From contig JBPOJE010000011.1 in assembly GCA_052033935.1 (NCBI GenBank), positions 139,814-203,813 of the forward strand: DNA of 64,000 bases, read 5' to 3'. Positions 36,726 to 62,277 of this stretch are shown here, piece by piece. The DNA is from Armatimonadota bacterium (GTDB lineage: Bacteria; Armatimonadota; UBA5829; DSUL01). Position numbers and translations under genes: made by a program. The notes beneath the pieces were generated by a model. That model searched no databases. It saw nothing but the letters and a program-made list of their open reading frames with translations, and was not told the origin of the DNA. Positions within the stretch are counted from its first letter, which is position 1; every line of letters begins with the position of its first letter.

Positions 36726-37274
36726 TCAGTCCGGTTTTGCGGTCTCGCCGAAGTGGCCGAAATTGGGAAGGTAGTCGCGCCAGACCTTGTTCTGGCTGCC
36801 GTCCACGAACTTCGTGAGGCTGACGAAGGGAATCCACTTGGGCCGCCGCGGCTGGCGGGCCAGGGCGAAGCCAACCTGCTGCAGCGACTTATCGCCCTTC
36901 TTCGTGTTGCACTTGCGGCAACAGCAGACGAGGTTCTCCCAGTCAGTGCGCCCGCCCAGCCTGCGCGGGATGACGTGGTCAATGGTGAGGTCCTTGCCCG
37001 TGTGCCCGCAGTACTGGCATGTGTACCCGTCGCGCGCGAAGATGGAGCGCCGCGACAGGCGCAGGCGCGGCATGGGCCTTCGGATATGGTACTTCAGCCG
37101 CACCACCGACGGACTGACGAGCGCCGTCGTTGCAGAGTGCACCGTGATCGAGTCCGAGTGAAGCACATCCACCTTGCCCAGGTAGATGAGCCCGATCGCA
37201 CGGCGCATATTGCAGATGTTGATCGGTTCGTAATCGCTGTTAAGGACGAGAACGTCCTGATTCAGGCTTTGCAT
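36726..37274 (-). CDS. HNH endonuclease
   Basis: CQYCGHTGKDLTIDHVIPRRLGGRTDWENLVCCCRKCNTKK is the HNH motif with Cys4 zinc site. Confidence 0.85.
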   Translation of the reverse strand: MQSLNQDVLVLNSDYEPINICNMRRAIGLIYLGKVDVLHSDSITVHSATTALVSPSVVRLKYHIRRPMPRLRLSRRSIFARDGYTCQYCGHTGKDLTIDHVIPRRLGGRTDWENLVCCCRKCNTKKGDKSLQQVGFALARQPRRPKWIPFVSLTKFVDGSQNKVWRDYLPNFGHFGETAKPD

Positions 37275-37571: not shown

Positions 37572-37643
37572 CAAGACAGCCTCGGGGGTCTCCTTCGGAA
37601 ATGTGAAGCAAAGAACTCAGGTGCTTCAAGGGCGTACCGAGGA

Positions 37644-37816
37644 CCGATGTCCGGCATCTCCGCTGCCGGACGGGCGTCCGCGGGGTCTCTGACCCCTGAC
37701 CGTTGTGCACGCCGCGCACTGCCGTCTGCGAACGCCATCCCGGATGGCGAGGCTGTTTGCCTGAATGGACGCCCCGCAAGATCCTGCAGACGTAGTCTGC
37801 GCGAGCAGAGATCGCG
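37644..37816. repeat. Copy A of a ~170-nt structured intergenic repeat family
   Basis: Its first 48 nt (ccgatgtccggcatctccgctgccggacgggcgtccgcggggtctctg) are identical to 41222-41269. Its end (gcgcgagcagagatcgcg) is identical to the end of copy B. The interior is about 70 percent similar. Confidence 0.7.
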
Positions 37817-37854
37817 TAGGGTTCCCTCTTTTCGGGGGAAGTCCATAAAACCTA

Positions 37855-37884
37855 TTGACTCGCCGCATGCCCGTCTGGTAAGAT
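37855..37884 (+). promoter_or_regulatory. Sigma70-like promoter (TTGACT-N18-TAAGAT) driving the riboswitch leader
   Basis: cctaTTGACTcgccgcatgcccgtctggTAAGATgcc, about 25 nt upstream of the riboswitch-like element. Confidence 0.45.
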
Positions 37885-37909
37885 GCCCATAGACAACAAC
37901 TGAATACCG

Positions 37910-38098
37910 AACGCGGTCAGGTTTCCCGGAATATTCCGGGACTAAGAGCGAAGACGGTACAAATCCGTCGCGGGCCCGCCGCTGTAATCGGGGACGAAAC
38001 CGACGTTCTCCACTGCAATGCCGAAAGACTCAGAGGGCATTGTGGGAAGGGTTCGGAAGTAGGATGATCCGAGAGCCAGAAGACCTGCCTGACTGCGA
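37910..38098 (+). ncRNA. Cobalamin (AdoCbl) riboswitch-like leader
   Basis: Ordered conserved blocks: GGTacAAAtCC, CGCGGGcCCGCCgCTGTAAtcGGGG (versus consensus GGTGxAAxTCC...CCCGCxACTGT), the B12 box tCCACTG, GGGAAGG, and a 3' GCCAGAAGACCTGCC (compare btuB CCCGAAGACCTGCC). 5' GGTCAGG can pair with the 3' CCTGAC to form P1. Confidence 0.6.
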
Positions 38099-38125
38099 TT
38101 ATATTCTACATCTTCGGAGGCTGAG

Positions 38126-38977
38126 ATGTTGGAAGCAAGTGAAGCAATAGGCGTATTACGGGCTTCCGTCCAATCAATCCGAAATGGGCGAGGAGCCCGT
38201 TTCGGCATATATGGTTTCACGCTCATCGAACTGCTTGTGGTTATCGCAATCATCGCCATTCTCGCGGCGATATTGTCTCCTGTGTTTATATCTGCCAAGG
38301 AGCAGGCTCGTCAGGCAAAGTGCATCTCTAACCTCAAGCAGATTACTTCCGCATGGCTGATGTACGTCGACGACAACTCAGGCCGTGCCTGTCCTTCCTA
38401 TTACATATCATCAGACGGATGGCGCAGGGCTTGGGATTTCGATCTCAAGGACGTCAAGTCCGGCGGCAAGATCACCACTATTTGGAAATATGGGCTGCTC
38501 GGACCCTACGCCAAGAGCGGAGAGATCAAGAGCTGTCCTTCGTTTCATGGCGGCAAGTGGGACAGACCCTATACAGGCTATGCCTACAACGCAAGCTACA
38601 TAGGCGGGGACATCACAGTCGATGGCCAGGTTTACGTAGAACAGTGGACCGGCCGTCCTCACACAATAGCAACTTTAGGTCAGATACGGAACCCATCCAG
38701 AACTGCCGTTTTTGCAGATGGCGGCTTCGGCAATCCAGTGAGCGCCCACAACTACCTGCGAGCACCAAGTGACGAGTACTTCCAGGCAGGTACCGTCCAT
38801 TACAGGCACAACGGTGCGGCGGTAGTAGCCTATGCCGATGGGCACGTGTCCTTGGTGTGCGCCAAGTTCACTCACTATACGGACGTCCCGTGGTTGCAGA
38901 CCGGCAAGTCGGCTTTCGACTGCGCGCTTGATACCGGAGGTCTTTCCCAGGATGATTCTGCTTATGATTTGGACTGA
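38126..38977 (+). CDS. DUF1559 (H-X9-DG) prepilin-type N-terminal cleavage/methylation domain protein
   Basis: [55 protein letters not shown], and C-terminal [22 protein letters not shown] 5 nt upstream of the ATG. Confidence 0.85.
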
Positions 38978-39002
38978 TACAACACAAAGTAGGAGAACGC
39001 AA

Positions 39003-40466
39003 GTGAAGCAGAAAATGACGCGAGTATTGCTGCTCGCTATGGTTGCGCTAATTTGCGCGGTCGGGGCTCACGCCATGGACTGGTGGGCTTCGGAAGTGAT
39101 AGGCTCAAGCCGCCTCGGCAATAGCCCCTATGACGATCCGACGGCTACTCTCGGCAAGCCCACGGTCTGGATGAACAACTCCGGTGCTCCCGGCGATCCG
39201 GATCCCTGCGCGGTATCGATGGTCATCCCGGCTTGGAACGTAGGCTGGCCGAGTGGCGAAAAGCTGATTACCACCATTATGGCTAGGACATCCACACTTC
39301 CCGCTGGCTATGTCACGGTCAAGTACACTACCAGAATCTATGATGACCCTAGTAACTGGTACGGCAAGGACTTTATCGTATTCGGCAACAGCTTCTTTGC
39401 AGCGGCTGGGCATTACGTGTATTCGGACTCGAATATGGAGGATGTTGTTATAGACTCCATTGATGGCGGAGGCGGGTGGTGGGAACCGATGCCGGTCAGT
39501 GTCAGCCAGGACAACATTACCTGGTATTCCTACACCAATGGACCCTATGCCGATGACTACGCCCCTACACAAGCCCTCGCCTGGGACTGGGTTGAAAACC
39601 ACTGGCTTAAGAACAGTGCGGGTGTTGACGTGGAACTTGATTTCACACGGCCGGTGACCCCGGGATACGGCAAAGCTAGCTTCAACGGGAAGACTGCGGC
39701 GGCAGGCATTGATATGTACGGCGGATCTGGCGGCGGGACTGCCTTTGATCTTGCCGAGTTACCCCTTCCCATAGATCCAGTTACGGGCCGCAAGTGGATC
39801 CAGTACATCAGGATCGATGGCGCGATGGGTGAGGTCGATGCTTTCGCCCGAGTGAGCCACCAGATTGATGAGATGTCCATCGGCGCCGTGAAGAAGCTGC
39901 CGGACGGGACTAGGGTGGTTCTCAAGGAATCTGTTGTGTCGGCTGCCACCTACGAGGTCGGGAGGTATTGTTATGTCGAGCACCCGGACAGGTCGGGCGG
40001 CATCAGGGTCATTGGTCGGGTTCTTGACCGCGATAAACACTACATTATCTACGGCGACATGGACACCATGGGAGATGAGCGTGTGATCCTCGCCACGGCA
40101 ATTACAGCCATTGAGGATAACACAGATCCGGTTGAGCCGGTTGGCATGCCAAACAGAAACATCTACGGCCACGGCCTGAACACGGCTGGACTTCTTGTGC
40201 AGACTTGGGGAAGGGCGCTCTCTGTTGACCAGGCTGACAAGTCTTTTGTGATTGACGATGGCTCCGGCAAGCCGATCAGGTGCATCGCCCCCAGAAGTAC
40301 AGAGGCAGCCGAGCCGAACAACGGCGTGGCGGTTCATCCGGATTTCAGTCCGCCAGCACAGGGCCATTTTGTAAGAATTACGGGCATCAGCTCGCTTGAG
40401 CGCAATGCTGAGGATGAGGTGGTGCCCGTGATCAGACTTAGGGACATCTCAAGCGTTGTCGAATAG
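39003..40466 (+). CDS. Secreted hypothetical protein ending in the conserved C-terminal module
   Basis: AGGAGA 6 nt upstream of GTG 39003 (ATG alternative at 39015). Signal peptide MTRVLLLAMVALICAVGAHA. C-terminus CYVEHPDRSGGIRV...GLNTAGLLVQTWGRA...FVIDDGSG...ISSVVE. Confidence 0.8.
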   Translation: MKQKMTRVLLLAMVALICAVGAHAMDWWASEVIGSSRLGNSPYDDPTATLGKPTVWMNNSGAPGDPDPCAVSMVIPAWNVGWPSGEKLITTIMARTSTLPAGYVTVKYTTRIYDDPSNWYGKDFIVFGNSFFAAAGHYVYSDSNMEDVVIDSIDGGGGWWEPMPVSVSQDNITWYSYTNGPYADDYAPTQALAWDWVENHWLKNSAGVDVELDFTRPVTPGYGKASFNGKTAAAGIDMYGGSGGGTAFDLAELPLPIDPVTGRKWIQYIRIDGAMGEVDAFARVSHQIDEMSIGAVKKLPDGTRVVLKESVVSAATYEVGRYCYVEHPDRSGGIRVIGRVLDRDKHYIIYGDMDTMGDERVILATAITAIEDNTDPVEPVGMPNRNIYGHGLNTAGLLVQTWGRALSVDQADKSFVIDDGSGKPIRCIAPRSTEAAEPNNGVAVHPDFSPPAQGHFVRITGISSLERNAEDEVVPVIRLRDISSVVE

Positions 40467-40508
40467 CACAGTCCCTATGAACCAACACTCTAAAAGAGGA
40501 AAGGACAA

Positions 40509-41162
40509 ATGAAGAGAACCATTATTCTCGCACTGCTGATGTTCGCCCTGGGCACCTCGATGGCATCGGCAGCCCCGTACGCTTTCAACTCGGCATCGGG
40601 CAAGACAGCCTGGATCGAGGTGGATGCCTGGTCAGGCAGCGGAGCAAACGAATCGATTCTGGTCGTGGACTGGAACGTTATGGGCGGCCCGTATGCGACC
40701 GAATCACACGCGTTTGGCTTCCGCTGGGACGGCACGGCGTACGTGTCGGATATGCTCAACGCATTTCACAACGCCGGTGTATTCACCCTAAGCTCGGGCT
40801 ATGGCGGGGCGTTTCTTATGGACATCGTCTACGATGACGGTATTGACCACCACACGCACGCTGATGAAGAGGGAAGCTGGAATCTCGCCAGCACTGACGA
40901 TCCCTACGCCCAATGGGGCGCAATGAGCTCTGACGGGACCAAGCTAGGTGAATGGGATGCCAATCCGGCCGGCTATAACCAAGAGTTGCTTGCGAATGGT
41001 CAGCTCGAAGGCATCAACGCGATTTCGTGGTTCGGCGGGGATCCCAACGCGTATACGTTGGATGTTCCTTTTGCCGCTGCCGTGCCTGAGCCGGGTTCGC
41101 TGGCGGGGCTTCTGGGAGGACTTGTTTCGATTAGTGGCCTTGTGTTGCGCAGTCGAAAGTAG
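40509..41162 (+). CDS. PEP-CTERM sorting-domain protein
   Basis: Signal peptide MKRTIILALLMFALGTSMASA. C-terminal VPEPGSLAGLLGGLVSISGLVLRSRK is a textbook PEP-CTERM (VPEP, TM, RSRK). Strong RBS AGAGGAAAGGA. Confidence 0.85.
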   Translation: MKRTIILALLMFALGTSMASAAPYAFNSASGKTAWIEVDAWSGSGANESILVVDWNVMGGPYATESHAFGFRWDGTAYVSDMLNAFHNAGVFTLSSGYGGAFLMDIVYDDGIDHHTHADEEGSWNLASTDDPYAQWGAMSSDGTKLGEWDANPAGYNQELLANGQLEGINAISWFGGDPNAYTLDVPFAAAVPEPGSLAGLLGGLVSISGLVLRSRK

Positions 41163-41181
41163 AGAGTCCTATTCGCACGCT

Positions 41182-41212
41182 GGACGGTCTCATCACGAGG
41201 CCGTCCAGCCAC
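41182..41212 (+). terminator. Hairpin after the PEP-CTERM gene (no U-tract)
   Basis: ctggacgg-N13-ccgtccag, an 8-bp stem. Confidence 0.3.
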
Positions 41213-41221
41213 AAGGCCCCA

Positions 41222-41390
41222 CCGATGTCCGGCATCTCCGCTGCCGGACGGGCGTCCGCGGGGTCTCTGGCCCCTGGCCGTTGCGCAGGCCGGCGCCGTT
41301 CCGGATCGGCGGGGCTGCTTGCCTGTATGGACGCCTCGCAATAAGGAGCAAAGCCCCTACAGACATGGCCGCGCGAGCAGAGATCGCGCG
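41222..41390. repeat. Copy B of the structured intergenic repeat
   Basis: See copy A. Lies in the convergent gap between the PEP-CTERM gene and the 41409-41795 gene. Confidence 0.7.
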
Positions 41391-41408
41391 ACATCGTGCA
41401 GAGACTGG

Positions 41409-41795
41409 TCAAGGTTGAGCGACCTTCCGAGAGATGCGCGCCACGTTCACGCCTTCGGCGACAAAAGCCCAGAGAGGAAAGAAGACGAAGAACCACACTC
41501 CTTGCGATGACGCGAACCAGTATAGGACGATCATGGCCACGAGTGTCATTTGGAAAAACACCAGCAAACGCGCTGCAGGCAAGCAACTGAACACTAATAC
41601 CCATTGCGCCACAGCAGGGAGTACCGCCAGGTAAAGCCAATACAGCTTCGCAGACGGCCCGAGTTCGCTTGGAGAAGCGTACACGTAGTAGAAGAAGCAA
41701 ACGAATACGGTCCGAAGGAGCAGATAGCAAACCCGGCTCCGACGTGCGCTTCCGTTCTGCAATGCCCGCATCTCGCTGAATATGGCAAAAGTCAT
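41409..41795 (-). CDS. Small four-TM membrane protein in a locally low-GC segment
   Basis: 128-aa ORF, strongly hydrophobic (FVCFFYYVY, LYWLYLAVLPAVAQWVLVF, VFFQMTLVAMIVLYWF, WFFVFFPLWAFV). Visibly A+T-richer than its surroundings. Confidence 0.5.
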   Translation of the reverse strand: MTFAIFSEMRALQNGSARRSRVCYLLLRTVFVCFFYYVYASPSELGPSAKLYWLYLAVLPAVAQWVLVFSCLPAARLLVFFQMTLVAMIVLYWFASSQGVWFFVFFPLWAFVAEGVNVARISRKVAQP

Positions 41796-41893
41796 TGACC
41801 TGCCCCCATTCTTTGGTCCACATGCTGTGTTTCTGTCCTTCGGGTCACTTCATACCTCCTATCAGGTGCTACGAGGGCGGCAGTGGAACGAAC

Positions 41894-42512
41894 GCCCCGA
41901 AGCGCCGCTGCGCCGGGCCTTCGCTAACGGCCGGACTCATCGCGTGCCAACGGCAACCACAAGACGCCCAGAAGGGGCTATGCTTCTCTGTGTGCGAAGG
42001 CGGGTGACGTGCCTCACACGCCCACGCTTTCAGGCCCGCTTTGGCGAGACGATGACGCCATCGAACACGGCCGCGTTCGACTGAACCCGGCACCCGCGGC
42101 CCACCACGCAGCGCTCGATGCAGGTGTCGCGCAGAACCGCCGCGTCCGGCCACAGAATGCTCTGGCGGACAGTGGCGCCCGATTCGACCACGCAGCCATC
42201 GGCGAGCACGGAATACTCCTGCACCTGCGCTCCGGCCTCGATGCGGCAGTTGTTGCCGATGACGACCGGATACTCGATCTTCGCGGTCGGGTCTATTTCG
42301 GCATTCTCCCCCATCCAGACGTACTTGCGGGATTCTTTGTAAGGGAGATTGAGTGTAATGCGCCCCTCCAGCACGTCGTAGTGTGTCTGGCGGTACGCCG
42401 TCAGGTTGCCGATGTCGCGCCAGTAGCTGGACGTGAGGTGTCCGTACAGCCGCATCTTGCGCTCGATCAACAGGGGCAGAAGGTCTTTGCCGAATCCGTA
42501 CATCACGCCCTT
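41894..42512. repeat. Segmental duplicate (copy 1) of 47195-47912
   Basis: Near-identical DNA over ~620 bp, with a ~95-bp indel relative to copy 2. Includes the 3' third of an NDP-sugar pyrophosphorylase gene plus its downstream region. Confidence 0.8.
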
Positions 42513-42520
42513 GAGGGTGC
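42030..42520 (-). pseudogene. Truncated duplicate (C-terminal LbH fragment) of the 47425-48459 NDP-sugar pyrophosphorylase
   Basis: ...KGVMYGFGKDLLPLLIERKMRLYGHLTSSYWRDIGNLTAYRQ...VIVSPKRA* is about 97 percent identical to the last ~165 aa of the full-length paralog. The nucleotidyltransferase N-domain is absent; the upstream ORF extension is unrelated sequence. Confidence 0.7.
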
Positions 42521-42727
42521 TGCCGGAGGTGTTCGGCGCGGCGGACGGGGTTCCCTGCGCGGTGCATTGGTCATGGCGCGATAGGAAAGGCGGCCGCGCC
42601 CACGAGCGTTGGCTACAGGAATCGGCTATAGTAGTGGTCAGGCGCAGGCTGGGCCATCCGGACCTTGCTGAGGCACAGACCGGATTGGGACAGCCCGCAG
42701 GTCGTTGGCGTGATCGGGAGGTCAACT

Positions 42728-45700
42728 ATGCGCGTCCGGTCTTACTTTGTCGCTGCTCTTCCGCTCTTCCTGTTCGCTGGTGCACGCGTCGGCGTCGCTG
42801 CGCCCATCGCGACCGCGACCGACGTCTCCGCGGCGCTGGCTGCGCCGGACGGGGCCGCTGTGTCACTGCAGACGGTCCTCGTGGATAAGGCCGCACGCGG
42901 ATACATCGTCGTCAGGGCACCGTGGTCGGCAGACGAGCGCGTGGTGGTGGTCGCGGCCGTCAACGTGAAGCGGTGGCAGCCCGTGGCTGTGAAGGGCACC
43001 CTCACCACCCTCGTCAATGGCATCAGGGCTGTCCGGGCGGACGAGGTCTTGGTCTACACCGACGCAGAGGGAGCGCCCGTCATTTGTCCGATTCCTCCAC
43101 CCATGACCAAAGGCGCCATTGCCGCATCCTTTTCTACTGCAGCGGCAGCCATCAAGCTTGATGAGCTCGCGATGCTCGCGGAGGATGAGACGCCGCCAGT
43201 GCCCGACCCCACACCGCCGGCTGTGGAACCCCAGTATATCGTTGGCACCATCAGTGAAGCTCTCGCGCTTGGTGAGGGCAGTACGGTCAGGGTCAACGGC
43301 AAGCCCATAGCGTCAACAGGCGACGACCCGACGTACGGCGCTTACTTCGTCGCTGGCGAAGACGGCAGTTCTGACACTCTCAAAACCTTCAGCTCCGCTG
43401 CAGCCTCGGCCGAAATGCGAGCCGCGGGCCTTACCGGAACCATAGCGATTCAACCGGGAGTCGGTAAAGTCCTCAGTACGGACAGCGGCCCTGGCAACCC
43501 GCCAGAGGGCTTCCACGGCCTTGCGGAACTGGCTGTAGCCGTAGATGTGTTCGGAGCAAAGACGAAACCGGACGACATGGAGGTGCAACTGCTCGGAAAG
43601 GTGGTGAGCCGTGCCTTCCCGAGCGAGGACGTGTTCTACATCCAGGAGCCAGACCGCGCATGCGGCATCAAGGTGGTCGATGCCATCAATGCAGCCTCAG
43701 TTGCCCCGGGCGATCTGGTCAGTGTCACGGGCTTCATATCAACGAACGCGTCAGGCGAGCGTTACATCGAGGCGTCGACCACAGAAATCACCGGCTCGAT
43801 AGAGCCACCGGTCCCCACAGCGATGATCAACCGCACTCTTGGAGGCGGCGATTTCCACTATAACGCCACCACCGGGGCCGGGCAGAAAGGCATCTCTGGA
43901 GTCGCCTACGGGCTGAACAATGTCGGCCTGCTCGTCCGCACGACCGGCAAGGTGACAGCCATCGGGAGTGATTACTTCTACGTTGACGATGGGAGTAACC
44001 TCAGCGACGGGGCGGGCCACACCGGCGTCCGTGTGGCCAACGTTCCTGCAACCACAGTGTCGGTGGGCGATTACGTTGGCATCGTCGGCATATCTGGTTT
44101 GGAGGGTACCAACCTCGCCTGCCGCCGCGTGCTCCGACCCGCAGACACGGCAGATGTTGAGACCCTCGATCCGCTCGCTCCGGCGAACCTCACCGCCAGT
44201 GCGGGCAACACCAGCGCGAGTCTGGTCTGGGACGCGGCGCCGGTGAGTTCGTATGCAGTTTTCCGGGGGGCCAGCCAGAGTGGCTCATTCACGCGAATCG
44301 CCACCGCAACGACTACTGCTTACGTAGATTCAGGCTTGACGAACGGCACAACCTATTGGTACAAGGTGGCGAGTATCAGCCTCGGCGAAGGTACGCCGAC
44401 GGCCGCTGTATCGGCAACGCCGACGGGGGCGGCGCCAATGGCAACAATGAGCAACTTAGCCGTAAATGACGGCACGCTTTCAGTGGATTACACCGCCACC
44501 GCAGGCTCTAGCGGCGACGAGCCGTCCATGGTTGCCTTTGGGTTGGATGGAGCACTAATATGGGCGGACACACCAGGCTTGCACAGCCACTTTGTGCTCG
44601 ACACGACGCAGTTCGCTAACGGCCCGCATCGGCTCTCTATAACCGCCATTTCGGCGTCCGCAGCCGGTGTGCTCACCTCAACCACGGCCGTGCAGGACGT
44701 CGCTTTCGACAACTTCGCATCGTCGTTTACCATACCGGAGGTAGCCTACGAGACAGCGGCTATTTCAACCGTTTTCGCAGCCCCAACGAGTTGGACCTTG
44801 CGTTTCCTGTCCGGTTCGCAGGAACTTGCGAGCACATCCGGCACGGGCACAGTTGTTTGCTACACTTGGGACAGCTCGCAGGCGTACGGAAACGTGACGG
44901 TCGAGTTGAGCTACGATGAGCCGGGTCCACTTGCTGCCCAGAAAGTGCGGAATGGCAGGACGTACGTCACCCACGGGGTGTACCCGCCAACCCCGCTTGC
45001 CTGGGCAGCTTATTATCCCGCGGATGCTGTCTCGGGGCAGGAGCTTTGGTACCGGCAGGATTACAACGCGGCCGCATCGAGTCTTCTGGATCATTTTGGC
45101 GTGCCGCCAGGCAATGAATGGCGCGGCCGCATTGCCGGCTGCGGCGGTTGGGATACAGTGATCGACCCGGTGCTCGTTGAGCCGGATTTCTGGCCGGGGA
45201 TACTGTTCTTCTCCGGACATGGGGAGTACGTCGACCGGGATAAGTCCATGCTCTACCAAGGGGCCGTTGCCGGCAGCTTCACTGGGGGGCGGACCTGCGG
45301 GCTCACAGCCTTGACGCCGTTCGGCACTCCGAGCGGCCCCATTTATATGCAGGCGGCTGGGCCAGCCCTCGGCAACGGAGGCATCTTCGACCCGCTTACC
45401 GGGCGCGTGGCGATGACGATGGTACACAAGCGGCTTGAGTTCGTCTTTTTCAATACGTGCTTCTCAGGCGGGCGTTCAAGCAGTAGCCGTCTTCCCCTCC
45501 TTCCGTTGGCTTTCGGCCTGCCGCGGCAGCGAGTAAGCGGCCTGGGCGCGGCCTACCTGGGCATTGTGGACACGGCGGAAAACGACGACGCGACCCTGTT
45601 CAACCAGACGTTTTGGAACTACCTCGAGCAGGGCTACACCATTGCCAGGGCCGCGTTCCATGCATCCCTGGCAACAGGAAAAAGGGTGAAGTATCGCATA

Positions 45701-45730
45701 GGTGGAGATCCGGGGCTGAGGCTATGGTGA
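42728..45730 (+). CDS. Large secreted protein: internal copy of the conserved module, Fn3 domain, C-terminal clan-CD (C25/caspase-like) peptidase-like domain
   Basis: GGGAGG RBS, signal peptide MRVRSYFVAALPLFLFAGARVGVAAP. Module FYIQEPDRACGIKV...GLNNVGLLVRTTGKV...FYVDDGSNLSDGAG. Fn3 segment LVWDAAPVSSYAVFRG...TTYWYKVASIS. His and Cys motifs ILFFSGHGEY and FVFFNTCFSGG. Confidence 0.8.
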   Translation: MRVRSYFVAALPLFLFAGARVGVAAPIATATDVSAALAAPDGAAVSLQTVLVDKAARGYIVVRAPWSADERVVVVAAVNVKRWQPVAVKGTLTTLVNGIRAVRADEVLVYTDAEGAPVICPIPPPMTKGAIAASFSTAAAAIKLDELAMLAEDETPPVPDPTPPAVEPQYIVGTISEALALGEGSTVRVNGKPIASTGDDPTYGAYFVAGEDGSSDTLKTFSSAAASAEMRAAGLTGTIAIQPGVGKVLSTDSGPGNPPEGFHGLAELAVAVDVFGAKTKPDDMEVQLLGKVVSRAFPSEDVFYIQEPDRACGIKVVDAINAASVAPGDLVSVTGFISTNASGERYIEASTTEITGSIEPPVPTAMINRTLGGGDFHYNATTGAGQKGISGVAYGLNNVGLLVRTTGKVTAIGSDYFYVDDGSNLSDGAGHTGVRVANVPATTVSVGDYVGIVGISGLEGTNLACRRVLRPADTADVETLDPLAPANLTASAGNTSASLVWDAAPVSSYAVFRGASQSGSFTRIATATTTAYVDSGLTNGTTYWYKVASISLGEGTPTAAVSATPTGAAPMATMSNLAVNDGTLSVDYTATAGSSGDEPSMVAFGLDGALIWADTPGLHSHFVLDTTQFANGPHRLSITAISASAAGVLTSTTAVQDVAFDNFASSFTIPEVAYETAAISTVFAAPTSWTLRFLSGSQELASTSGTGTVVCYTWDSSQAYGNVTVELSYDEPGPLAAQKVRNGRTYVTHGVYPPTPLAWAAYYPADAVSGQELWYRQDYNAAASSLLDHFGVPPGNEWRGRIAGCGGWDTVIDPVLVEPDFWPGILFFSGHGEYVDRDKSMLYQGAVAGSFTGGRTCGLTALTPFGTPSGPIYMQAAGPALGNGGIFDPLTGRVAMTMVHKRLEFVFFNTCFSGGRSSSSRLPLLPLAFGLPRQRVSGLGAAYLGIVDTAENDDATLFNQTFWNYLEQGYTIARAAFHASLATGKRVKYRIGGDPGLRLW

Positions 45731-46275
45731 GGCCCTCGGTTGCCTTTGTGGCTGGGATTCTGGCCGGCGCCCTTCTGGCTGGAGGTGCAGCATTGCTGCT
45801 CAATCGAGAGTCCACCGTGGGTGCCAGGAGCGCACCGTGGCGTCCCGGCCTGGCAGAGCTGCGCGACATGTTCACGGCCGATGTTCGCGCAGGGCGGACC
45901 CCGGACGAGGTTGTCATTATCGTCAAGCAGCAGTTCGCAACGGACGCGTATTGGACTCAAAAGCCGGCGGTCGGCTATATCGTCAGCCAAGGGCAGAAGT
46001 GGTCACTGCGGGCAGCGGTGACACAACTCTCTGAGCCTGTCGAAAGGCTGGACTTCGAAGGCCGGACTTACCCGCTGCAGCGCCCCAGCCAAGAGGCACG
46101 GGTCCGGTTCAGAGCTCCAAGGGCCCCGGCTGGGCCCGCAATCCTGAGGATTAAGGTGGAGGTTATGGTGGGGCCCACGCCGGCTCTGGCTAAGGCGCCT
46201 CTACTTGTCCCGCTGCGCCTGTCGGGCCTTCAGGCGACCGTGGCCCCAGATGGCGCCATTCGGCTTGCGCTGTGA
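45724..46275 (+). CDS. Membrane-anchored hypothetical protein
   Basis: The ATG overlaps the upstream stop (ATGGTGA). TM anchor MVRPSVAFVAGILAGALLAGGAALLL. Confidence 0.6.
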   Translation: MVRPSVAFVAGILAGALLAGGAALLLNRESTVGARSAPWRPGLAELRDMFTADVRAGRTPDEVVIIVKQQFATDAYWTQKPAVGYIVSQGQKWSLRAAVTQLSEPVERLDFEGRTYPLQRPSQEARVRFRAPRAPAGPAILRIKVEVMVGPTPALAKAPLLVPLRLSGLQATVAPDGAIRLAL

Positions 46276-46310
46276 TCATGGGCTGTGGCTGACAAGCTGT
46301 TACCATCCAC

Positions 46311-46452
46311 CATGTGCCGGCATCTCTGCTGCCAGCACGACGCCCGCGGGAGCTGTGCTTCCCATGCTGCTGGCGGGCCATATGCAGCGCGAGGATGCGG
46401 AGCAGAGCACCGGCAGACATCGCTCGCGGGAGCAGAGATCCCGCGAGATCGG
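46311..46452. repeat. Copy C (diverged) of the structured intergenic repeat
   Basis: catgtgccggcatctctgctgccagcacgacgcccgcggg... and ...cgcgggagcagagatcccgcg match the two ends of copies A and B. Confidence 0.5.
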
Positions 46453-46516
46453 GGGGCTTGGGCAAACCTGGTGTGCTGCCTTGGCGTTGCTGTCCTGGTG
46501 CGGAGCTGTTTGCGTG

Positions 46517-47203
46517 CTTCGGGGCTTCTTTTCGCCCCGAAGCTCATCCTGATCCCGCGTCATAGCATCTCCTCCGTGGAGTCGATCCGCAATGGGCCGC
46601 TGCCGCAATCATACCAGGAGGCGCTGGAGAAGAGCCAATCCTCTGGAGTCTGGCACAGCCCCCGCCGCACCGGGTTGCTGTGCATATAGGCCAGCTTCGC
46701 CAGAAGGGCCTCGTCCGTAGTCACAGGCAGGCCGTGCCCGCGCTCCTTCCACACCCGCACCCGGCTCTTGCCCCGCGCAAGGCTGCGAGAAAGCTCCAGC
46801 CACTCTGCTGCCTGGGCGTTGCCACGCTCTGCCGCACGGGCCGTCATTGCCGTGATATCGCCCGAGAAGGTGCGCAGGCTCTGCACCAGGAACTTCCGAA
46901 CGCTGTCTGCCGACGGCCCCCACAGCAGGATGTGGAAGTGCTCAGGCATCACCACGTAGCCCAGAATTCGGACGCCAAAGCGCTCGCGACGGCTGTCCCA
47001 GATGGAGAGCAGCAGCGCGGCTGCGCGAGGGCTCCTCAGCACAGGAGTCCACTCGACGATGGTGCTGGTCCAGAACCAGCGCGCGCCGTCCTGCCACAGA
47101 TTGTGATGGCGCGACATGACGCAATCTTACCAGCCGGCCATATCCAGCGCAAGCACTCGGCTCGGTCTGGCTTCTGGCTTCGGGGCGAAAAGAAGCCCCG
47201 AAG
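46517..47203 (-). mobile_element. REP-RAYT unit: Y1/HUH transposase gene bracketed by inverted palindromic hairpins
   Basis: cttcggggc-TTCTTTTC-gccccgaag at 46517-46542 and cttcggggc-GAAAAGAA-gccccgaag at 47178-47203. The stems are identical and the loops are reverse-complementary. Confidence 0.65.
46560..47117 (-). CDS. REP-associated tyrosine transposase (RAYT) / IS200-like Y1 HUH transposase
   Basis: HUH motif VMPEHFHILLW and catalytic Tyr context KLAYMHSNPVRRGL. 185 aa. Confidence 0.8.
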   Translation of the reverse strand: MSRHHNLWQDGARWFWTSTIVEWTPVLRSPRAAALLLSIWDSRRERFGVRILGYVVMPEHFHILLWGPSADSVRKFLVQSLRTFSGDITAMTARAAERGNAQAAEWLELSRSLARGKSRVRVWKERGHGLPVTTDEALLAKLAYMHSNPVRRGLCQTPEDWLFSSASWYDCGSGPLRIDSTEEML

Positions 47204-47912
47204 CACCGAAAGCACCGAAAACCGAGCCTTCGCTGACGGCCGGACTCACCGCCCGACTCCGGTGGCCACGAGACGCCCACGAGGGGCTATGCTACAGGTT
47301 CTTCTCTGTGCTCCGGACTGCCACCACGCATGTTTCCGGGCTTCGGCCCGTCGTTCCAGAGAACTCCGAGCCGAAGCACAGTCCCGTTGTGATGGCGCGT
47401 GAGATGCCTCACGCGCCCGCGCTTTCACGCCCGCTTCGGGGAGACGATGACACCGTCGAACACGGCCGCGTTCGACTGAACCCGGCACCCGCGGCCCACC
47501 ACGCAGCGCTCGATGCAGGTGTCGCGCAGAACCGCCGCCTCCGGCCACAGGATGCTCTGGCGAACAGTGGCGCCCGATTCGACCACGCAGCCATCGGCGA
47601 GCACGGAATACTCCTGCACGTGCGCCCCGGCCTCGATGCGGCAGTTGTTGCCGATGACGACCGGATACTCAATCTTCGCGGTCGGGTCTATTTCGACATT
47701 CTCCCCCATCCAGACGTACTTGCGCGCCTCTTTGTAAGGGAGATTGAGCGTAATGCGCCCGTCCAGCACGTCGTAGTGCGTCTGGCGGTATTCCGTCAGA
47801 TTGCCGATATCGCGCCAGTAGCTGGACGTGAGGTGTCCGTACAGCCGCATCTTGCGCTCGATCAACAGGGGCAGAAGGTCTTTGCCGAATCCGTACATCA
47901 CGCCCTTCGGGA
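47195..47912. repeat. Segmental duplicate (copy 2) of 41894-42512
   Basis: See copy 1. Covers the 3' part of the intact pyrophosphorylase gene and its downstream sequence up to the RAYT-proximal REP. Confidence 0.8.
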
Positions 47913-48459
47913 TCAGCTCGAGCACAGCGGGTTCGAGGAAGTACACCCCCGTGTTGGCGGCGTTCGAGAACATGCTGCTGCCCCTGGGCTTCTCGACGAA
48001 ACGGGTGATGCGTCCCCGCTCGTTGACGAGCGCGATGCCGTACTCGGACGGGTCCTCGACGAGAGACAGCGCGATAGTGCACAGCGCCCTCTTCTCTTTG
48101 TGATTGCTCAGAATGCGGGTGAGGTCGAAGTCCGAGATGTCGTCGCCGCCGATGACAACAAACGTGTCGTCGAAGAAGTCCTCGGCCCGCTTCACGCTAC
48201 CCGCGTCGCCCCACAGCCTGTCCTCCTCGGCATAGGTGAGGCGCACACCCAGGCGTGATCCGTCTCCCAGGGCCTTCTTGATCTGCCCTCCAAGATAGTG
48301 CAGGTTCACCATAATCTCGTTGAACCCGTGGCGGGCGAGCAGATGCAAGATATGCTCGATGTTCGGCTGGTTCACAATCGGGACCAGCGGCTTCGGGGTA
48401 TTGCGGGTGAGGGGATCGAGCCGGCTGCCAACTCCAGCCGCCAGAATCATGGCCTTCAC
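47425..48459 (-). CDS. NDP-sugar pyrophosphorylase (mannose-1-phosphate guanylyltransferase-like) with C-terminal left-handed beta-helix
   Basis: MKAMILAAGVGSRLDPLTRNTPKPLVPIV is a nucleotidyltransferase G-rich loop. Hexapeptide repeats at the C-terminus. Confidence 0.9.
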   Translation of the reverse strand: MKAMILAAGVGSRLDPLTRNTPKPLVPIVNQPNIEHILHLLARHGFNEIMVNLHYLGGQIKKALGDGSRLGVRLTYAEEDRLWGDAGSVKRAEDFFDDTFVVIGGDDISDFDLTRILSNHKEKRALCTIALSLVEDPSEYGIALVNERGRITRFVEKPRGSSMFSNAANTGVYFLEPAVLELIPKGVMYGFGKDLLPLLIERKMRLYGHLTSSYWRDIGNLTEYRQTHYDVLDGRITLNLPYKEARKYVWMGENVEIDPTAKIEYPVVIGNNCRIEAGAHVQEYSVLADGCVVESGATVRQSILWPEAAVLRDTCIERCVVGRGCRVQSNAAVFDGVIVSPKRA

Positions 48460-58294: not shown

Positions 58295-60220
58295 CTAGAA
58301 CTTGATCTCCGGCTTGCTCATCGGCTTGTGACACCCGTTGCACATGTCGGCGGTGTGACAGAGCGCGCATGAATGCTGGTTGTCCTTGGCCTCTTTCGCA
58401 TGCCCCATCAAATAGGCATCGTTATGGTTCGAGGGCTTAATGCCGCCGGTCGAGTGGCACTTCGTGCAGTCGGGACGAGCATGGCAGTAGGCGCAGTTCG
58501 ACTTGCCCGACGCCGCCGACTTGCCGTGCACCGCCAGCCATGTTGCGCCGTGCGACGGCGGCTTCTTCGTCTTGTGGCAATCGTCGCAGAACTTGCTGGA
58601 GGTGTGGCAGGTCGCGCAACTCTGCCTAGCGGCGCTGCCGTGCGTTGTCAGGAAGTCCTTCGCCTTGTGCGACGCGGGCCTTGCGCTCGTATGGCAGGCC
58701 TGGCAGTAGCGCTCCTGGTGACACCTGAGGCATGAGGCCTTGTTCTTCCGCGCATCTTTTCCATGCCCCTGGGCGGCCCATCCGGACGCGTTGTGAGTGG
58801 CCGGACGCGAGCCCTTGTGGCAGTCATCGCAGTACTTCTGCGAATGGCACTTCGTGCAGAGCCGCGGCGTTCGTCCCGGCGTAATGTGGGCCTTGCGATA
58901 GTTGGACGGATGTGGCATCTGCATGCCGTGGCAGTCTGAACACTGCCTGGCCGTGTGGCAGGTGAGACAGCGCTCCTGCGCGGCCAGCGATACCGGCCCG
59001 TGCCGCCGGGTCCAGTCGGTCTTGTGCGACCGCGGGGCGGCTTTCTGATGGCAGGTGTTGCAGAACTGCTGCTTGTGGCAGGTCTGGCACTGCGAAGACA
59101 CGGCCTTCCCGTGCGCCCGCTCCCAGTCTAATGCTTTGTGATTCTCCGGCTCCTGATTGTTGTGGCAGGACTCGCAGAACTTGAGCGTGTGGCAGGTCTG
59201 GCATCGGGCGATGTCTTTGCCAGCGGTCCTGGCATGCGTTTTGCCCCAACCCGGCGGGTGCGGCTGATTGGTCTTGTGGCAGCCGGTGCAGAACTGCTGC
59301 TTGTGGCAGGCGCGGCAGGATGCTTCTCCCTTGCTCGCAACGTCCGTACCGTGCTTCTCCCTGTAGCCCGGCGGATGCACCTTCTCTTTGCTGTGGCATC
59401 TGGCGCAGGTATTGTTCTTCAGACCGCCGGGATGGCAGAGTTCACAGCCCTTGGGGTTGCGCTTCTGCTCGGCGGCGTGCACGTCTATGAAGGACGGCTC
59501 GTGCGGGTTGACGGTCTTGTGGCAGTTCTCGCAGTAGCTGGCCTGATGGCAGCGCAGGCACTCTTCGGGCTTCTTGCCAACCTCCGCCTTGTGCCCTTCC
59601 TTCCACTCTTTGCTGAAGGCCGCCGGCTTTCGCCCTTTCAGCACCTCGTGGCAAAGCGAGCAGTCGTTCGGCGCCTGCTTGCCGTCGTGACAGGTGGTGC
59701 ACATTGCCATCGTGGGGACGTTGATGGCCGCCGCGTCCGGGCCATGCACAACCCCCTTGTGGCAATACGCGCAGGGGATGTTGCGGTCCCAGTGCTTTTG
59801 ATGGCTAATTTTGATGCCGTGATAAACAACCCATTCGCGTGTTGTCTTGTGGCACGCGCGGCAGTTCGCGTCGGGAACGCTGGCCTGAATGGCGTCGTTC
59901 TTCGCGCGAGCGGCGTGCCGGGCAATAATCCGCGCCGAGCCAAGTCTCGTCCGGAAGAAGCGCTGGCTAGCGGGAGCCACGTGGCAACCACCGCACGAGA
60001 CGTCCTTATGCCCGGAGACCTTCCACATGGCGTAGGCGGCGTCCTTGTCGTGGCAGGCCGCGCAGGTGCGCATCTGAACCGCCGGGGCAACCGCAAGCGC
60101 GGCAACCGCGGCGAGGACGGCAAAGAGCAGGACGCAACCGAGCGGCAGGCTCCGGCCCTTCCACGGAAGCAGAATGCGCGCGCCTCTCCATTTCAGCGGG
60201 TTCAGGCAGCCGGGCTTCAC
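58295..60220 (-). CDS. Periplasmic multiheme cytochrome c with 28 CxxCH motifs (doubled-CxxCH repeats)
   Basis: 28 CxxCH sites counted by eye, mostly as CxxCHxxx(F/Y)CxxCH pairs. GTG start overlapping the upstream stop (GTGA). Signal peptide. Confidence 0.9.
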   Translation of the reverse strand: MKPGCLNPLKWRGARILLPWKGRSLPLGCVLLFAVLAAVAALAVAPAVQMRTCAACHDKDAAYAMWKVSGHKDVSCGGCHVAPASQRFFRTRLGSARIIARHAARAKNDAIQASVPDANCRACHKTTREWVVYHGIKISHQKHWDRNIPCAYCHKGVVHGPDAAAINVPTMAMCTTCHDGKQAPNDCSLCHEVLKGRKPAAFSKEWKEGHKAEVGKKPEECLRCHQASYCENCHKTVNPHEPSFIDVHAAEQKRNPKGCELCHPGGLKNNTCARCHSKEKVHPPGYREKHGTDVASKGEASCRACHKQQFCTGCHKTNQPHPPGWGKTHARTAGKDIARCQTCHTLKFCESCHNNQEPENHKALDWERAHGKAVSSQCQTCHKQQFCNTCHQKAAPRSHKTDWTRRHGPVSLAAQERCLTCHTARQCSDCHGMQMPHPSNYRKAHITPGRTPRLCTKCHSQKYCDDCHKGSRPATHNASGWAAQGHGKDARKNKASCLRCHQERYCQACHTSARPASHKAKDFLTTHGSAARQSCATCHTSSKFCDDCHKTKKPPSHGATWLAVHGKSAASGKSNCAYCHARPDCTKCHSTGGIKPSNHNDAYLMGHAKEAKDNQHSCALCHTADMCNGCHKPMSKPEIKF

Positions 60221-62277
60221 TTCGACTTACCGCCTTTGCCCGGTTTCTTCCGCGGCCCGGGCGGCGCGGGGGGTTCCTTGACCGATTCGGGGTTTTCAGC
60301 CTCCGCGGCGGATTCCTCCGGCGGAGCGGCGGCCTTGTCGCGCGCCGCAGCCCTCGACGAGAGTTCGCCCGCCAGCCGCTCGTACTCCAGACGGTGCTCG
60401 TGGCGCATCTCGCCGAGCGTGACCGATCCGTTCAGGAACACGCGGCTCATGGGGAAGCTCCCCGGCTTCAGGTGCACATGGTAGAAGTGCCAGACCACGA
60501 TCGCCAGAAACGCGAGCAGGGCTTCGTACCCGTGCACGATCTCGCAGATATCCAGACCCCATTTGGGGATGAAACGCAGCGCCACCTCCGGCAACCAGAG
60601 CGCGAACCCCGTGATGATCATCACCACCGACCCCCAGCCCATCGCGAGGTACTCGAACTTCTCGATAAGGTTGAAGCGGCCGAACCCTGGCATCTCCATC
60701 GCAAAACCGAAGTAGTACTTCAGCATCCCGAACGCACGCGGGATGTCGCGCGGCTTCGGAAGCATGTGCAGGAAGTCCTCGCGCCCACGCCGTGTGAACA
60801 CCGTCCACGCAACGTGCCATACGCAGACCAGTATCAGCAGAATAGCCATCACGCGGTGGATGTTCCCGCGCAGCGTAACGCCCCCGAACGCGCGCACCAG
60901 CCAGTCGGCTCCCGGCGCATCGGGGTAGCGGACTGGAAATCCGGTGAGAACCAGCATCGTGAACGAGAAGATCAGCACGCCGTGCTGCCGGAGCTGACTC
61001 GTGGAGAAGCGCCTGATCTTCACCGAGTCGAACGGACTCGCATCACCGTATCCATGAACATTCCAGCCCCGCCGCCCGTGTTGAACGAGGTCGCAGATGA
61101 TCAGCACGACGAAGCCCAGCATGAGCGCCCCGATGAACAGGGAGTACAGCTTCGCGACCCAGAACTGAACGGCGTCGCGCGTAGGCGAGGGCATCAGGTG
61201 AATGGAGCCGCGCGCGACGTTCGCCCCTGCGCCCGGATGGCAATCCGTGCTGCCGCAGGTCGCCGGCAGGTTGGCGGGATGCACGGACGAAGCGGGGTCG
61301 GACGACGGCAGCACAAGATGCGCGTTGTGGCAGCTTGCGCAACTGGCGGCTTTCACCTCGCCGAACCGGTTCGCAACCCCGTGATAGCTGTCTTTGTAGG
61401 AGGAGATGCGTCCCGCGGCAAGGTTGTAGCGATCTATGAGGGTCTTGTCAGCGTGACATCCGGCGCAGGTCTCGGTGACGCGGGCGCCCGAGGTTTTGGA
61501 GCCAGCTGCCGATGCTCGCTGGATGTTGTGCTCGCCGTGGCAGTCCGTGCACGACGGGGCATCGGTGATGCCCTCCGCCAGAGCCTTGCCGTGCGTGCTC
61601 TTCTGGTAGTCCTGATATTCCTTGGCATGACAGGCGCCGCAGACAGCCGGGACATTCGTCTTGCTGATCCGGGATGCCGGGTCGCTAGACGGCAGTATGG
61701 AATGATCGCCATGGCAGTCCGTGCAGACCGCCGCCACCAGCCCGGGGCGCTTCGGATCTACCTGCCCGTGCACGCTATGGCGGTATTCCACCACCTGCCT
61801 GTCGCCGAGCGCCTTCGCCGCCGCGCCTTTCGCGCCGTGGCAGGCCACGCACGTCTGCACGACGTTGGCGCGGTTCACGAGCGATCCGGGGGCGTCAGGC
61901 CTGCGGACATCGTGGCTGCCGTGGCACCCGGCGCAGCCGGGCAGCAGATCCGCCAGAGCGTCCGGGCCGCCATGCCCCACAGGTTTTGCCGGGCGCGCGC
62001 CTCTAAGCGGCTGCGGGCCATGGCACCGCGCGCAGTTCACCTTCGGGGCGGGATGATCGTGCGGCACAGCCTGCTCGGGCAGGGTGGCATGGCAGTCGCG
62101 GCACATAAGCGCGGGGTGCACGGACGCGGAGAGGCTCTGCGTGGTGATCCGCGCCTTGCCCATGGAGGGAGCCGAATGGCACGCCTGGCAGGCGGGGGTG
62201 GCGTGCGCGGGCGCCGCCAGCGCGGTAAGCGCCAGGCCGAGCAGAGTATATGTGAAAACCCGAATGCCGTGGATCAT
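60217..62277 (-). CDS. CbcL-like fusion: periplasmic multiheme cytochrome c (about 11 heme sites) fused to a membrane di-heme cytochrome b (FdnI/HydC-type) domain
   Basis: Ten CxxCH motifs plus one CxxxxCH in the N-terminal half. The C-terminal half has about five TM helices with conserved His (HGVLIFS, HRVMAILL, HGYEALLAFLAIVVWHFYHVH), typical of the Ni/Fe-hydrogenase b-type cytochrome subunit family. Confidence 0.85.
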   Translation of the reverse strand: MIHGIRVFTYTLLGLALTALAAPAHATPACQACHSAPSMGKARITTQSLSASVHPALMCRDCHATLPEQAVPHDHPAPKVNCARCHGPQPLRGARPAKPVGHGGPDALADLLPGCAGCHGSHDVRRPDAPGSLVNRANVVQTCVACHGAKGAAAKALGDRQVVEYRHSVHGQVDPKRPGLVAAVCTDCHGDHSILPSSDPASRISKTNVPAVCGACHAKEYQDYQKSTHGKALAEGITDAPSCTDCHGEHNIQRASAAGSKTSGARVTETCAGCHADKTLIDRYNLAAGRISSYKDSYHGVANRFGEVKAASCASCHNAHLVLPSSDPASSVHPANLPATCGSTDCHPGAGANVARGSIHLMPSPTRDAVQFWVAKLYSLFIGALMLGFVVLIICDLVQHGRRGWNVHGYGDASPFDSVKIRRFSTSQLRQHGVLIFSFTMLVLTGFPVRYPDAPGADWLVRAFGGVTLRGNIHRVMAILLILVCVWHVAWTVFTRRGREDFLHMLPKPRDIPRAFGMLKYYFGFAMEMPGFGRFNLIEKFEYLAMGWGSVVMIITGFALWLPEVALRFIPKWGLDICEIVHGYEALLAFLAIVVWHFYHVHLKPGSFPMSRVFLNGSVTLGEMRHEHRLEYERLAGELSSRAAARDKAAAPPEESAAEAENPESVKEPPAPPGPRKKPGKGGKSK

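Follow-up and report, generated by a model that had tools for sequence, protein, structure and literature searches.

The window analyzed here, the whole stretch of 64,000 nucleotides (nt) from an Armatimonadota contig (JBPOJE010000011.1), contains the 3' end of a gene for a nucleoside diphosphate (NDP)-sugar pyrophosphorylase twice. In locus 2 it belongs to the intact gene and lies beside a gene for a repetitive extragenic palindrome (REP)-associated tyrosine transposase (RAYT). In locus 1 only a fragment of the enzyme gene is left, and the position of the RAYT gene is occupied by an open reading frame (ORF) for a small membrane protein. The original prediction was that the RAYT and its REP hairpins had mediated the duplication, or an exchange of cassettes. 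We favor a different history, to which we give an even chance: the two loci would be divergent alleles of one hypervariable surface-protein locus, concatenated via a single illegitimate join between positions 42512 and 42513. The arrangement is most likely the product of ordinary genome plasticity, a mosaic of events of known kinds, and not of a transposase-driven cassette system.

A pyrophosphorylase 3' end is duplicated within a strain-variable island

The best relatives of the pyrophosphorylase locus in the window are all metagenome-assembled genomes (MAGs) of Armatimonadota. The closest is L022 (JAXGLP010000002.1), with ~91-93% nucleotide identity. In blastn comparison the synteny of the window with L022 runs up to 37571 and resumes from 47340, and the 9.8 kb between these positions is absent from L022. 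Everything under study sits within this island. Between the same conserved flanks L022 instead has 1.64 kb with an insertion sequence (IS) of the IS3 family. That element is complete (L022 positions 11449-12680), with Pfam matches of orfA to HTH_Tnp_1 and of orfB to rve/rve_3, HTH_21 also being detected, and it has inverted repeats of ~27 nt that start TGACCTGCCCCC. The presence of an IS3 element where the window has the island indicates that the 3' end of this pyrophosphorylase gene is a recurrent insertion site. The island and the parts of the duplication are:

37572-47339: strain-variable island (9.8 kb; from blastn synteny with L022, the ORFs and IS inverted repeats of L022, and Pfam)
42030-42512, minus strand: truncated NDP-sugar pyrophosphorylase 3' fragment (160 codons and stop; LbH domain only)
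47425-48459, minus strand: intact NDP-sugar pyrophosphorylase (NTP_transferase and LbH domains; the final 483 nt form the duplicate's second copy)
42512-42513: novel joint, from the middle of the pyrophosphorylase gene to the unique upstream region of the gene for a 1000-aa protein

Segment 41894-42512 is collinear with 47195-47907, as found by a repeat search (families D1 and D7) and by pairwise alignment; family D1 pairs 41993-42292 with 47388-47687 at 94%. The coding parts (42030-42512 and 47425-47907) differ at 22 of 483 nt, giving 95.4% nucleotide and 96.3% amino acid identity. The near-identical duplicate of the earlier claim is therefore real, its protein identity of 97% being revised to 96.3%. 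Nor is the similarity limited to the coding fragment, since 136 nt of the non-coding tail can be aligned, with 84% identity. The tail has in addition 94 nt of indels found only in locus 2, mainly as one block of ~86 nt around 47295-47380.

On the 5' side of the gene the similarity ends abruptly, between 42512 and 42513 in locus 1 and between 47907 and 47908 in locus 2. We take the former to be the probable point of illegitimate recombination. A simple tandem-duplication unit was considered for the segment and is ruled out, because 42513-42760 has no second copy elsewhere in the window. In each of four relatives (L022, L023, L024 and L108) there is a single copy of the pyrophosphorylase gene at the locus.

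Both loci have the order of parts found in relatives

The two loci share the order secreted OB protein, small protein, structured repeat, position X, REP-bearing tail of an intergenic element that we call E, and pyrophosphorylase 3' end. The RAYT gene and the 128-aa ORF with four transmembrane segments had been placed in equivalent positions (X). This is borne out, and the common order extends further left, into the genes for the OB and small proteins. The parts to the left of X are:

37902-41162, plus strand: allele-1 operon (riboswitch, prepilin-type/DUF1559, OB-domain and PEP-CTERM; G+C 53-58%)
37902-38106, plus strand: cobalamin riboswitch (RF00174, 116.9 bits)
38126-38977, plus strand: prepilin-type/DUF1559 gene
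38832-40466, plus strand: ORF of p483, an OB-domain secreted protein, called as 483 aa from ~39015
40509-41162, plus strand: PEP-CTERM protein gene
42728-46275, plus strand: allele-2 operon
42728-45730, plus strand: p1000, a 1000-aa secreted protein with OB-like and fn3 domains
45724-46275, plus strand: gene for a 183-aa protein
37643-37830, plus strand: structured repeat A, at the left edge of the island and upstream of the cobalamin riboswitch (repeat families D5 and D8)
41221-41395, plus strand: structured repeat B, ending 4 nt before the Rhs-array gene block described below
46311-46452, plus strand: structured repeat C, after the second secreted-protein operon and outside the RAYT unit

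The similarity between the loci falls from the enzyme (95%) through element E (84%) and repeats B and C (~65%) to the OB proteins (27% amino acid identity, in the OB-like domain shared by p483 and p1000; E = 1e-9) and the small proteins, which have none. Such a gradient fits alleles of a hypervariable locus that lies beside a conserved gene, and is unlike the result of one recent copying event. The 183-aa protein matched no Pfam or NCBIfam family. In L024 the gene for an 887-aa secreted protein converges directly on the orthologous pyrophosphorylase gene, 57 nt from its stop codon. In L108 a 277-aa OB-domain gene, with that of a 926-aa secreted protein before it, likewise converges directly on the ortholog, and L023 has a gene of the same OB-protein family nearby. 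From the convergent genes of L024 and L108, both loci of the window reproduce an ancestral layout.

Repeats A and B are 94% identical over their first 72 nt. Repeats B and C had been regarded as part of a shared module; they are related, but at only ~65% identity, against the 94% of A and B, the structured repeat did not belong to the duplication of the enzyme segment. As direct repeats, A and B bracket the riboswitch operon. Within the structured repeats the loop of a 5' hairpin (TCTCYGC) is complementary to that of a 3' hairpin (GCAGAGA). An nhmmer search of 1.29 Mb of other Armatimonadota loci gave matches to the structured repeat only in this strain's own contigs, and Rfam, at both gathering and E-value thresholds, gave nothing for the structured repeats or the REPs and only the cobalamin riboswitch. 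Single-sequence RNA folds of the repeats are weakly better than those of shuffled sequences (z from -0.7 to -2.6), and we do not claim a structured RNA. The DUF1559, OB-domain and PEP-CTERM genes directly after the cobalamin riboswitch are an unusual gene set for control by B12.

The RAYT gene lies in a discrete unit

46509-47211, minus strand: REP-RAYT-REP unit (703 bp, with 35-nt terminal inverted repeats, each with a REP hairpin with a 10-bp stem)

We assigned genes to the RAYTs on the basis of a RAYT profile match together with the HUH motif and the catalytic-tyrosine motif (YxxxNP), and the intact ORF at 46560-47117 (minus strand) has all of these. It matches NCBIfam NF047646 (REP_Tyr_transpos) with E = 4e-22 and 78.7 bits, 1.3 bits short of the cut-off of 80, and its match to Pfam Y1_Tnp is weak (E = 0.023). 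The protein aligns with E. coli TnpA-REP (PDB 4er8, E = 5.8e-5) with the HUH and Y motifs in register, PEHFHIL pairing with PEHMHCI and YMHSNPVRRG with YIYINPVKHG. Inverted REP hairpins, 35 nt long and 94% complementary (inverted repeat I2), stand on either side of the gene at 46509-46543 and 47177-47211, with DNA-fold z values of -6.0 and -4.5. Their consensus is GGTGCTTCGGGGC-N8-GCCCCGAAGCACC. The REP-flanked RAYT of the original prediction is thus confirmed by profile, structure and hairpins. In the 64-kb window the exact REP 10-mer occurs only at 41894, 46516, 46534, 47177 and 47195. With one mismatch there are 14 occurrences where 10.9 are expected, which is not above chance.

A RAYT at least 90% identical (P0015) is found on metagenome contigs L102 and L103, where it adjoins a HepT toxin gene. 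These contigs are 95% identical to the window over 701 bp (46513-47211); the homology stops at the REP hairpins, and repeat C lies outside it. Since the homology ends at the REPs of the unit itself and the context is unrelated, REP-RAYT-REP is a discrete module that was inserted into locus 2 independently. It is absent at this locus in L022. On these comparisons the unit has occupied two unrelated sites, and it is not the counterpart of the membrane protein gene. Single-copy, vertical inheritance, as in RAYT Groups 2 and 3, does not describe a unit with this distribution. At 47203-47220 there is a 9-bp direct repeat, GCACCGAAA directly followed by GCACCGAAA, and the right-hand boundary of the unit falls between the two copies. 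This may be a footprint of insertion or of slippage.

Element E has an intact hairpin in locus 1

41831-42029, plus strand: element E, copy 1 (imperfect complete REP hairpin at 41865-41906; second hairpin deleted)
47212-47424, plus strand: element E, copy 2 (tail of the intact gene; second hairpin GCTTCGGCCCG...CGAGCCGAAGC at ~47340-47377)

Element E follows the enzyme gene in both loci. From 41894 onward copy 1 is the non-coding tail of the duplicate, and only 47340-47424 of copy 2 is common to L022. The element has an imperfect hairpin of the REP family, GGTGCT(T/A)CGAGGGCG-N13-CGCCCCGAAGCGCC, which is complete in locus 1. The half REP (gccccgaagc) that had been described at this place is the 3' arm of that hairpin. 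L022 retains the second hairpin, which locus 1 has lost by deletion.

When metagenomes were scanned with the window sequence spanning 41886-41906, the element E block was identified in L106 (MTKZ01010185.1), behind an unrelated 915-aa secreted protein with cadherin/Ig domains. Positions 2811-3015 of L106 match 41830-41966 of the window with E = 1.7e-22 and, more weakly, 47187-47378 with E = 1.9e-7. As the hairpin is also present in L106, the REP-side end of the duplicate is an intact native hairpin and not a cleavage product. Element E is, judged by this recurrence, a dispersed REP-bearing intergenic element. A Y1/RAYT-like gene (L106 4138-4905, minus strand; Pfam Y1_Tnp, E = 3.8e-5) lies 1.2 kb from element E in L106. 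It aligns with the RAYT of the window over the N-terminal 130 residues only (34% identity) and may be truncated or frameshifted. We also considered the RAYT unit as having split element E. This was rejected, as the resemblance of 46453-46508 to the left part of E is not significant (shuffle P = 0.35-0.42).

The membrane protein gene has homologues in Rhs arrays

41400-41795, minus strand: orphan copy of a gene found in the immunity position of Rhs/YD arrays (ORF 41409-41795, 128 aa, four hydrophobic segments)
41796-41830, plus strand: remnant of an IS3-family terminal inverted repeat, abutting the ATG of the membrane ORF

The membrane ORF is intact, with a G+C content of 54% against ~63% for the window and 64% at third codon positions (GC3). 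It had been called A+T-rich and foreign-looking. The composition is as described, but the G+C content of the tract from 38.0 to 41.8 kb is 53-58% throughout, and the genes to the left have similar values of G+C and GC3 (DUF1559 gene 54% and 60%, p483 56% and 65%, PEP-CTERM gene 58% and 67%). The membrane ORF is therefore not an isolated foreign gene.

No Pfam or NCBIfam family and no other annotation was found for its product, and its cluster-level homologues are P0001 (93%) and P0002 (84%) only. It had been suggested that homologues might travel with REP/RAYT elements; all contexts of the homologues are instead Rhs/YD arrays (L013-L021, L104 and L105). P0002 begins 8 nt after the gene for a 717-aa RHS_repeat protein (E = 9.8e-28) whose C-terminus is variable. 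It also runs into the beginning of an orphan YD fragment, and a further small ORF comes after that fragment. P0016 and P0001 have the same position in their arrays. A place directly after an RHS-repeat protein is that of an immunity gene, and an immunity function of the family is suggested by this position. With a ratio of non-synonymous to synonymous rates (dN/dS) of 0.35-0.41 against its homologues, the membrane ORF behaves as a real coding sequence. By tblastn there is no YD or RHS protein in the 64-kb window, and hence no cognate toxin beside the gene.

The array copies are homologous to the window at the nucleotide level over exactly 41400-41795, an interval that starts at the ATG and takes in 9 nt beyond the stop codon. 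On the ATG side, 41795-41830 (36 nt) aligns by blastn with the final 36 nt of the IS in L022 at 92% identity (E = 2e-8) and is unique in the window, where no IS3 transposase is left. On the opposite side repeat B ends 4 nt from the homology block.

The substitutions in the fragment suggest a long functional phase

The 22 differences between the coding copies were polarized with the L022 ortholog as outgroup. Over the 483 nt the fragment differs from the intact gene at 22 sites and from L022 at 30, and the intact gene differs from L022 at 20. The distance between the two copies in the window thus matches that of an ortholog from another species-level genome. Fifteen differences arose on the fragment branch (nine synonymous and six non-synonymous) and five on that of the intact gene (all synonymous), the other two being ambiguous. 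Under neutral decay after copying within the genome, non-synonymous changes are expected to exceed synonymous ones by ~2.5-3 to 1. The fragment branch is deficient in them relative to neutrality, with binomial P = 0.003-0.018 and, for equal per-site rates, Fisher P = 0.0028.

All six replacements in the fragment are unique among relatives, and three are in otherwise invariant columns. At ~13% for synonymous sites and 16% for the tail, the copies have a neutral divergence far above the ~1.6% per non-synonymous site that the fragment has gathered. The fragment looks like a sequence with a short pseudogene phase after a long functional one.

An independent assembly contains the joint

Logan contig L001, present in three samples, equals 42483-47485 of the window at 100% and covers the joint between 42512 and 42513, and Logan contig L008 corresponds to 37662-41249. 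Two short-read contigs from other samples, L004 (1-283) and L006 (1-452), map to 47388-47839, where they have the RAYT and the locus-2 tail, followed by locus-1 alleles in the 3' part of the pyrophosphorylase gene. In L006 all 17 of 17 sites from 47539 onward are of the locus-1 type; in L004 three sites change to that type and then back. The switching reflects either true gene conversion from one copy to the other or de Bruijn paths that change over where the copies are identical for 57-84 nt.

A proposed history and the points against it

In the history that we favor, a hypervariable operon for secreted or surface proteins converges on the conserved NDP-sugar pyrophosphorylase gene, and two versions of it now stand head to tail. 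DNA from a related strain or species with its own version of the locus would have entered the cell. It would then have recombined through homology on one side and through the illegitimate join between 42512 and 42513 on the other, whereby the second version was added and not swapped. The incoming enzyme gene would have been cut in its middle, leaving the 483-bp 3' scar and, downstream, the REP-bearing element E. At position X of one version the mobile 703-bp REP-RAYT-REP unit probably inserted beside E. In the other version an immunity-type gene from an Rhs/YD array would have been stranded between the IS3 end remnant and the structured repeat. The RAYT unit, the IS3 remnant and the stranded gene would thus represent separate events in the two versions. 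The origin of the second version in another genome and the one-sided illegitimate recombination are what we infer from these data.

Several observations weigh against this history. We found no donor genome with the allele of the fragment in an intact gene, and the closest proteins (97%, 92% and 92%) are without the residues of the fragment. Identity profiles of the flanks against L022 show no recombination breakpoint, the variation tracking gene conservation, and either version may have been the resident one. The substitution statistics are based on 22 differences and one outgroup, and a full-length paralog that was truncated late would give an identical pattern. The 98 nt by the joint (42417-42512 and 47812-47907) are identical between the copies, while L022 differs at five sites there (P≈0.007 for the density of differences overall); this may hint at gene conversion between the copies, which would complicate the dating. 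Finally, 41249-42483 was not recovered in any independent assembly of this strain. No exact product was found for the intact enzyme, for the 157-aa fragment or for the membrane ORF, whether read from its 128-aa or its 120-aa start.

Alternative histories

An old tandem duplication within this genome is unlikely in our judgment. It would have included the whole locus with a complete second enzyme gene, both copies remaining functional for long, the cargo diverging or being replaced, and one 5' half being deleted later. The same topology and synonymous excess would result, and the parallel order of parts would follow directly. Repeats A, B and C and the distant paralogy of p483 and p1000 fit repeated local duplication. 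However, the relatives L022, L023, L024 and L108 have one gene copy each at the locus, which requires loss in all of them. The synonymous divergence is equal to that from L022, so the duplication must pre-date the split and have been followed by loss in L022. Moreover, 27% identity in a single domain between p483 and p1000, together with unrelated small proteins, goes far beyond what the 13-16% neutral divergence of the enzyme copies allows, and 42513-42760 again is without a second copy.

The original prediction, that the RAYT acting on REP hairpins, or recombination between REPs, copied the 620-bp segment or swapped cassettes within this genome, now appears quite improbable. One end of the duplicate does coincide with a REP-family hairpin in both loci, the RAYT ORF is intact with its HUH and Y motifs, and the occurrence of the unit in two genomic contexts means that this unit, or relatives of it, moved. 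In enterobacteria, tandem duplications can have REP sequences as their join points. Yet the other end of the duplicate, at 42512, falls well inside a gene, where there is neither a REP nor a repeat, and the locus-1 hairpin is intact, native to E and shared with L106, with no cleaved half site. The divergence of the fragment and its synonymous bias oppose a copy made within the genome and left to decay. The membrane protein gene is bounded by the IS3 end and repeat B and not by REPs, and the RAYT unit is a self-contained insertion. As the rest of the 64-kb window is free of the REP 10-mer, there is no sign of a REP population in it.

We see only a slight prospect that REP-RAYT-REP is autonomously mobile, is still active in Armatimonadota and targets the REP hairpin of E, with E and the structured repeats of 150-190 nt on either side of the secreted-protein operons serving as recombination sites at which whole surface-protein operons are shuffled between strains. 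If true, a conserved sugar-nucleotide gene would have a hairpin-guided system for exchanging cassettes at its 3' end.

It is very unlikely that the fragment is a functional stand-alone left-handed beta-helix (LbH) protein of ~157 aa kept by selection. The reading frame has no interruption between an in-frame ATG and the native stop codon, an NCBI annotation records a 157-aa product (P0003), and dN/dS on the fragment branch is ~0.2. Against this, the six unique replacements, three of them in columns invariant in relatives, suggest relaxed constraint, the nucleotidyltransferase domain is missing, and no stand-alone homologues of such length were found except as cut contig ends.

An assembly artefact, with two strain variants stitched into one MAG contig, is least probable of all: the source is a metagenome-derived contig of 222 kb, and L004 and L006 switch alleles over identical 57-84 nt in a repeat that confuses de Bruijn assemblers, but merging two branches of a bubble would not make the unique joint, the joint and all of 42483-47485 are present at 100% in a separate assembly from three samples, and the ends of the unitigs coincide with the points where the k-mers of the copies merge, as expected with both copies in one population.

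Relation to known systems

The history of gain through one-sided recombination that we favor has its closest parallel in the 3'-end displacement arrays of Rhs and type VI secretion system (T6SS) genes (Jackson et al. 2009 as cited in PMC5361080; Kirchberger et al. 2017, PMC5361080). There too a conserved gene anchors recombination, and one homologous and one illegitimate join have been proposed to account for displaced 3' ends and orphan immunity genes (PMC5361080). The displaced 3' end and the genes downstream are left as a scar, and orphan immunity genes pile up. In the window, by contrast, the anchor is a housekeeping-type NDP-sugar pyrophosphorylase and not a toxin gene, and the variable cargo consists of a secreted OB-domain/PEP-CTERM operon. 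The displaced gene and the orphan immunity-type gene are not partners, and the latter has entirely lost its Rhs context. This orphan gene resembles known orphan immunity genes of polymorphic toxin systems in being a small multi-transmembrane ORF whose homologues lie 8 nt downstream of RHS proteins with variable C-termini and upstream of orphan YD fragments, and in standing alone here without a toxin. The family is likened to them by gene position, and the copy in the window differs in being cut to the codon by the IS3 end and a local repeat.

The RAYT unit is similar to REPIN-RAYT systems (Nunvar 2010; Bertels & Rainey 2011, PMC3337134; Bertels et al. 2017, PMC5581495) in its Y1 HUH transposase-like gene, RAYT motifs and inverted REP flanks, and the same hairpin family recurs in the nearby intergenic element. 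Classical RAYTs are single-copy and vertically inherited, with many dispersed REPs or REPINs, whereas in the 64 kb examined no exact copy of the REP 10-mer lies outside this locus. The complete REP-RAYT-REP unit recurs at 95% identity in an unrelated context, in the manner of an IS, and the NCBIfam score is just under the cut-off. IS-like behavior has been discussed for other RAYT groups, Groups 2 and 3 being single-copy and vertical (Bertels et al. 2017, PMC5581495). With the IS200/IS605 family the unit shares a Y1 HUH transposase gene, subterminal hairpins, varied contexts and the lack of an evident target-site duplication. It differs in that its protein has more in common with the RAYT model and E. 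coli TnpA-REP, the Y1_Tnp match being weak, and in that the ends are perfect inverted hairpins, while the left and right ends of IS608-type elements are asymmetric.

Other features of the window

Two further regions of the window lie outside the island. At 37571-37300 (minus strand) a consensus TTGACA-17-TATAAT promoter is directly followed by a G+C hairpin with a run of T, and there is a second terminator-like hairpin ~200 nt beyond. The arrangement is conserved in L022 (12760-12990) and is upstream of a gene for an HNH endonuclease (36726-37274). It may be a small RNA or a leader; Rfam gave no match for it. At ~58300-62000 (minus strand) repeated TGC-N6-TGCCAC motifs (repeat families D2, D3 and D15) correspond to CXXCH haem-binding sites, and this region probably contains one or more genes for multihaem cytochromes.

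Implications

For annotation, 42030-42512 should be read as a recombination scar and not as a gene, 41409-41795 as an orphan member of an unannotated family that occupies the immunity position of Rhs arrays, and 46509-47211 as one putatively mobile unit. RAYTs are usually regarded as immobile, domesticated genes. The most unusual element of the locus is a RAYT that, with its two REPs, appears as one transferable unit in two contexts, which is a rare case. Current ideas are not overturned by these findings. The locus would provide a compact and datable example of how a hypervariable surface-protein locus in the poorly studied Armatimonadota may grow by adding alleles, and not by swapping them.

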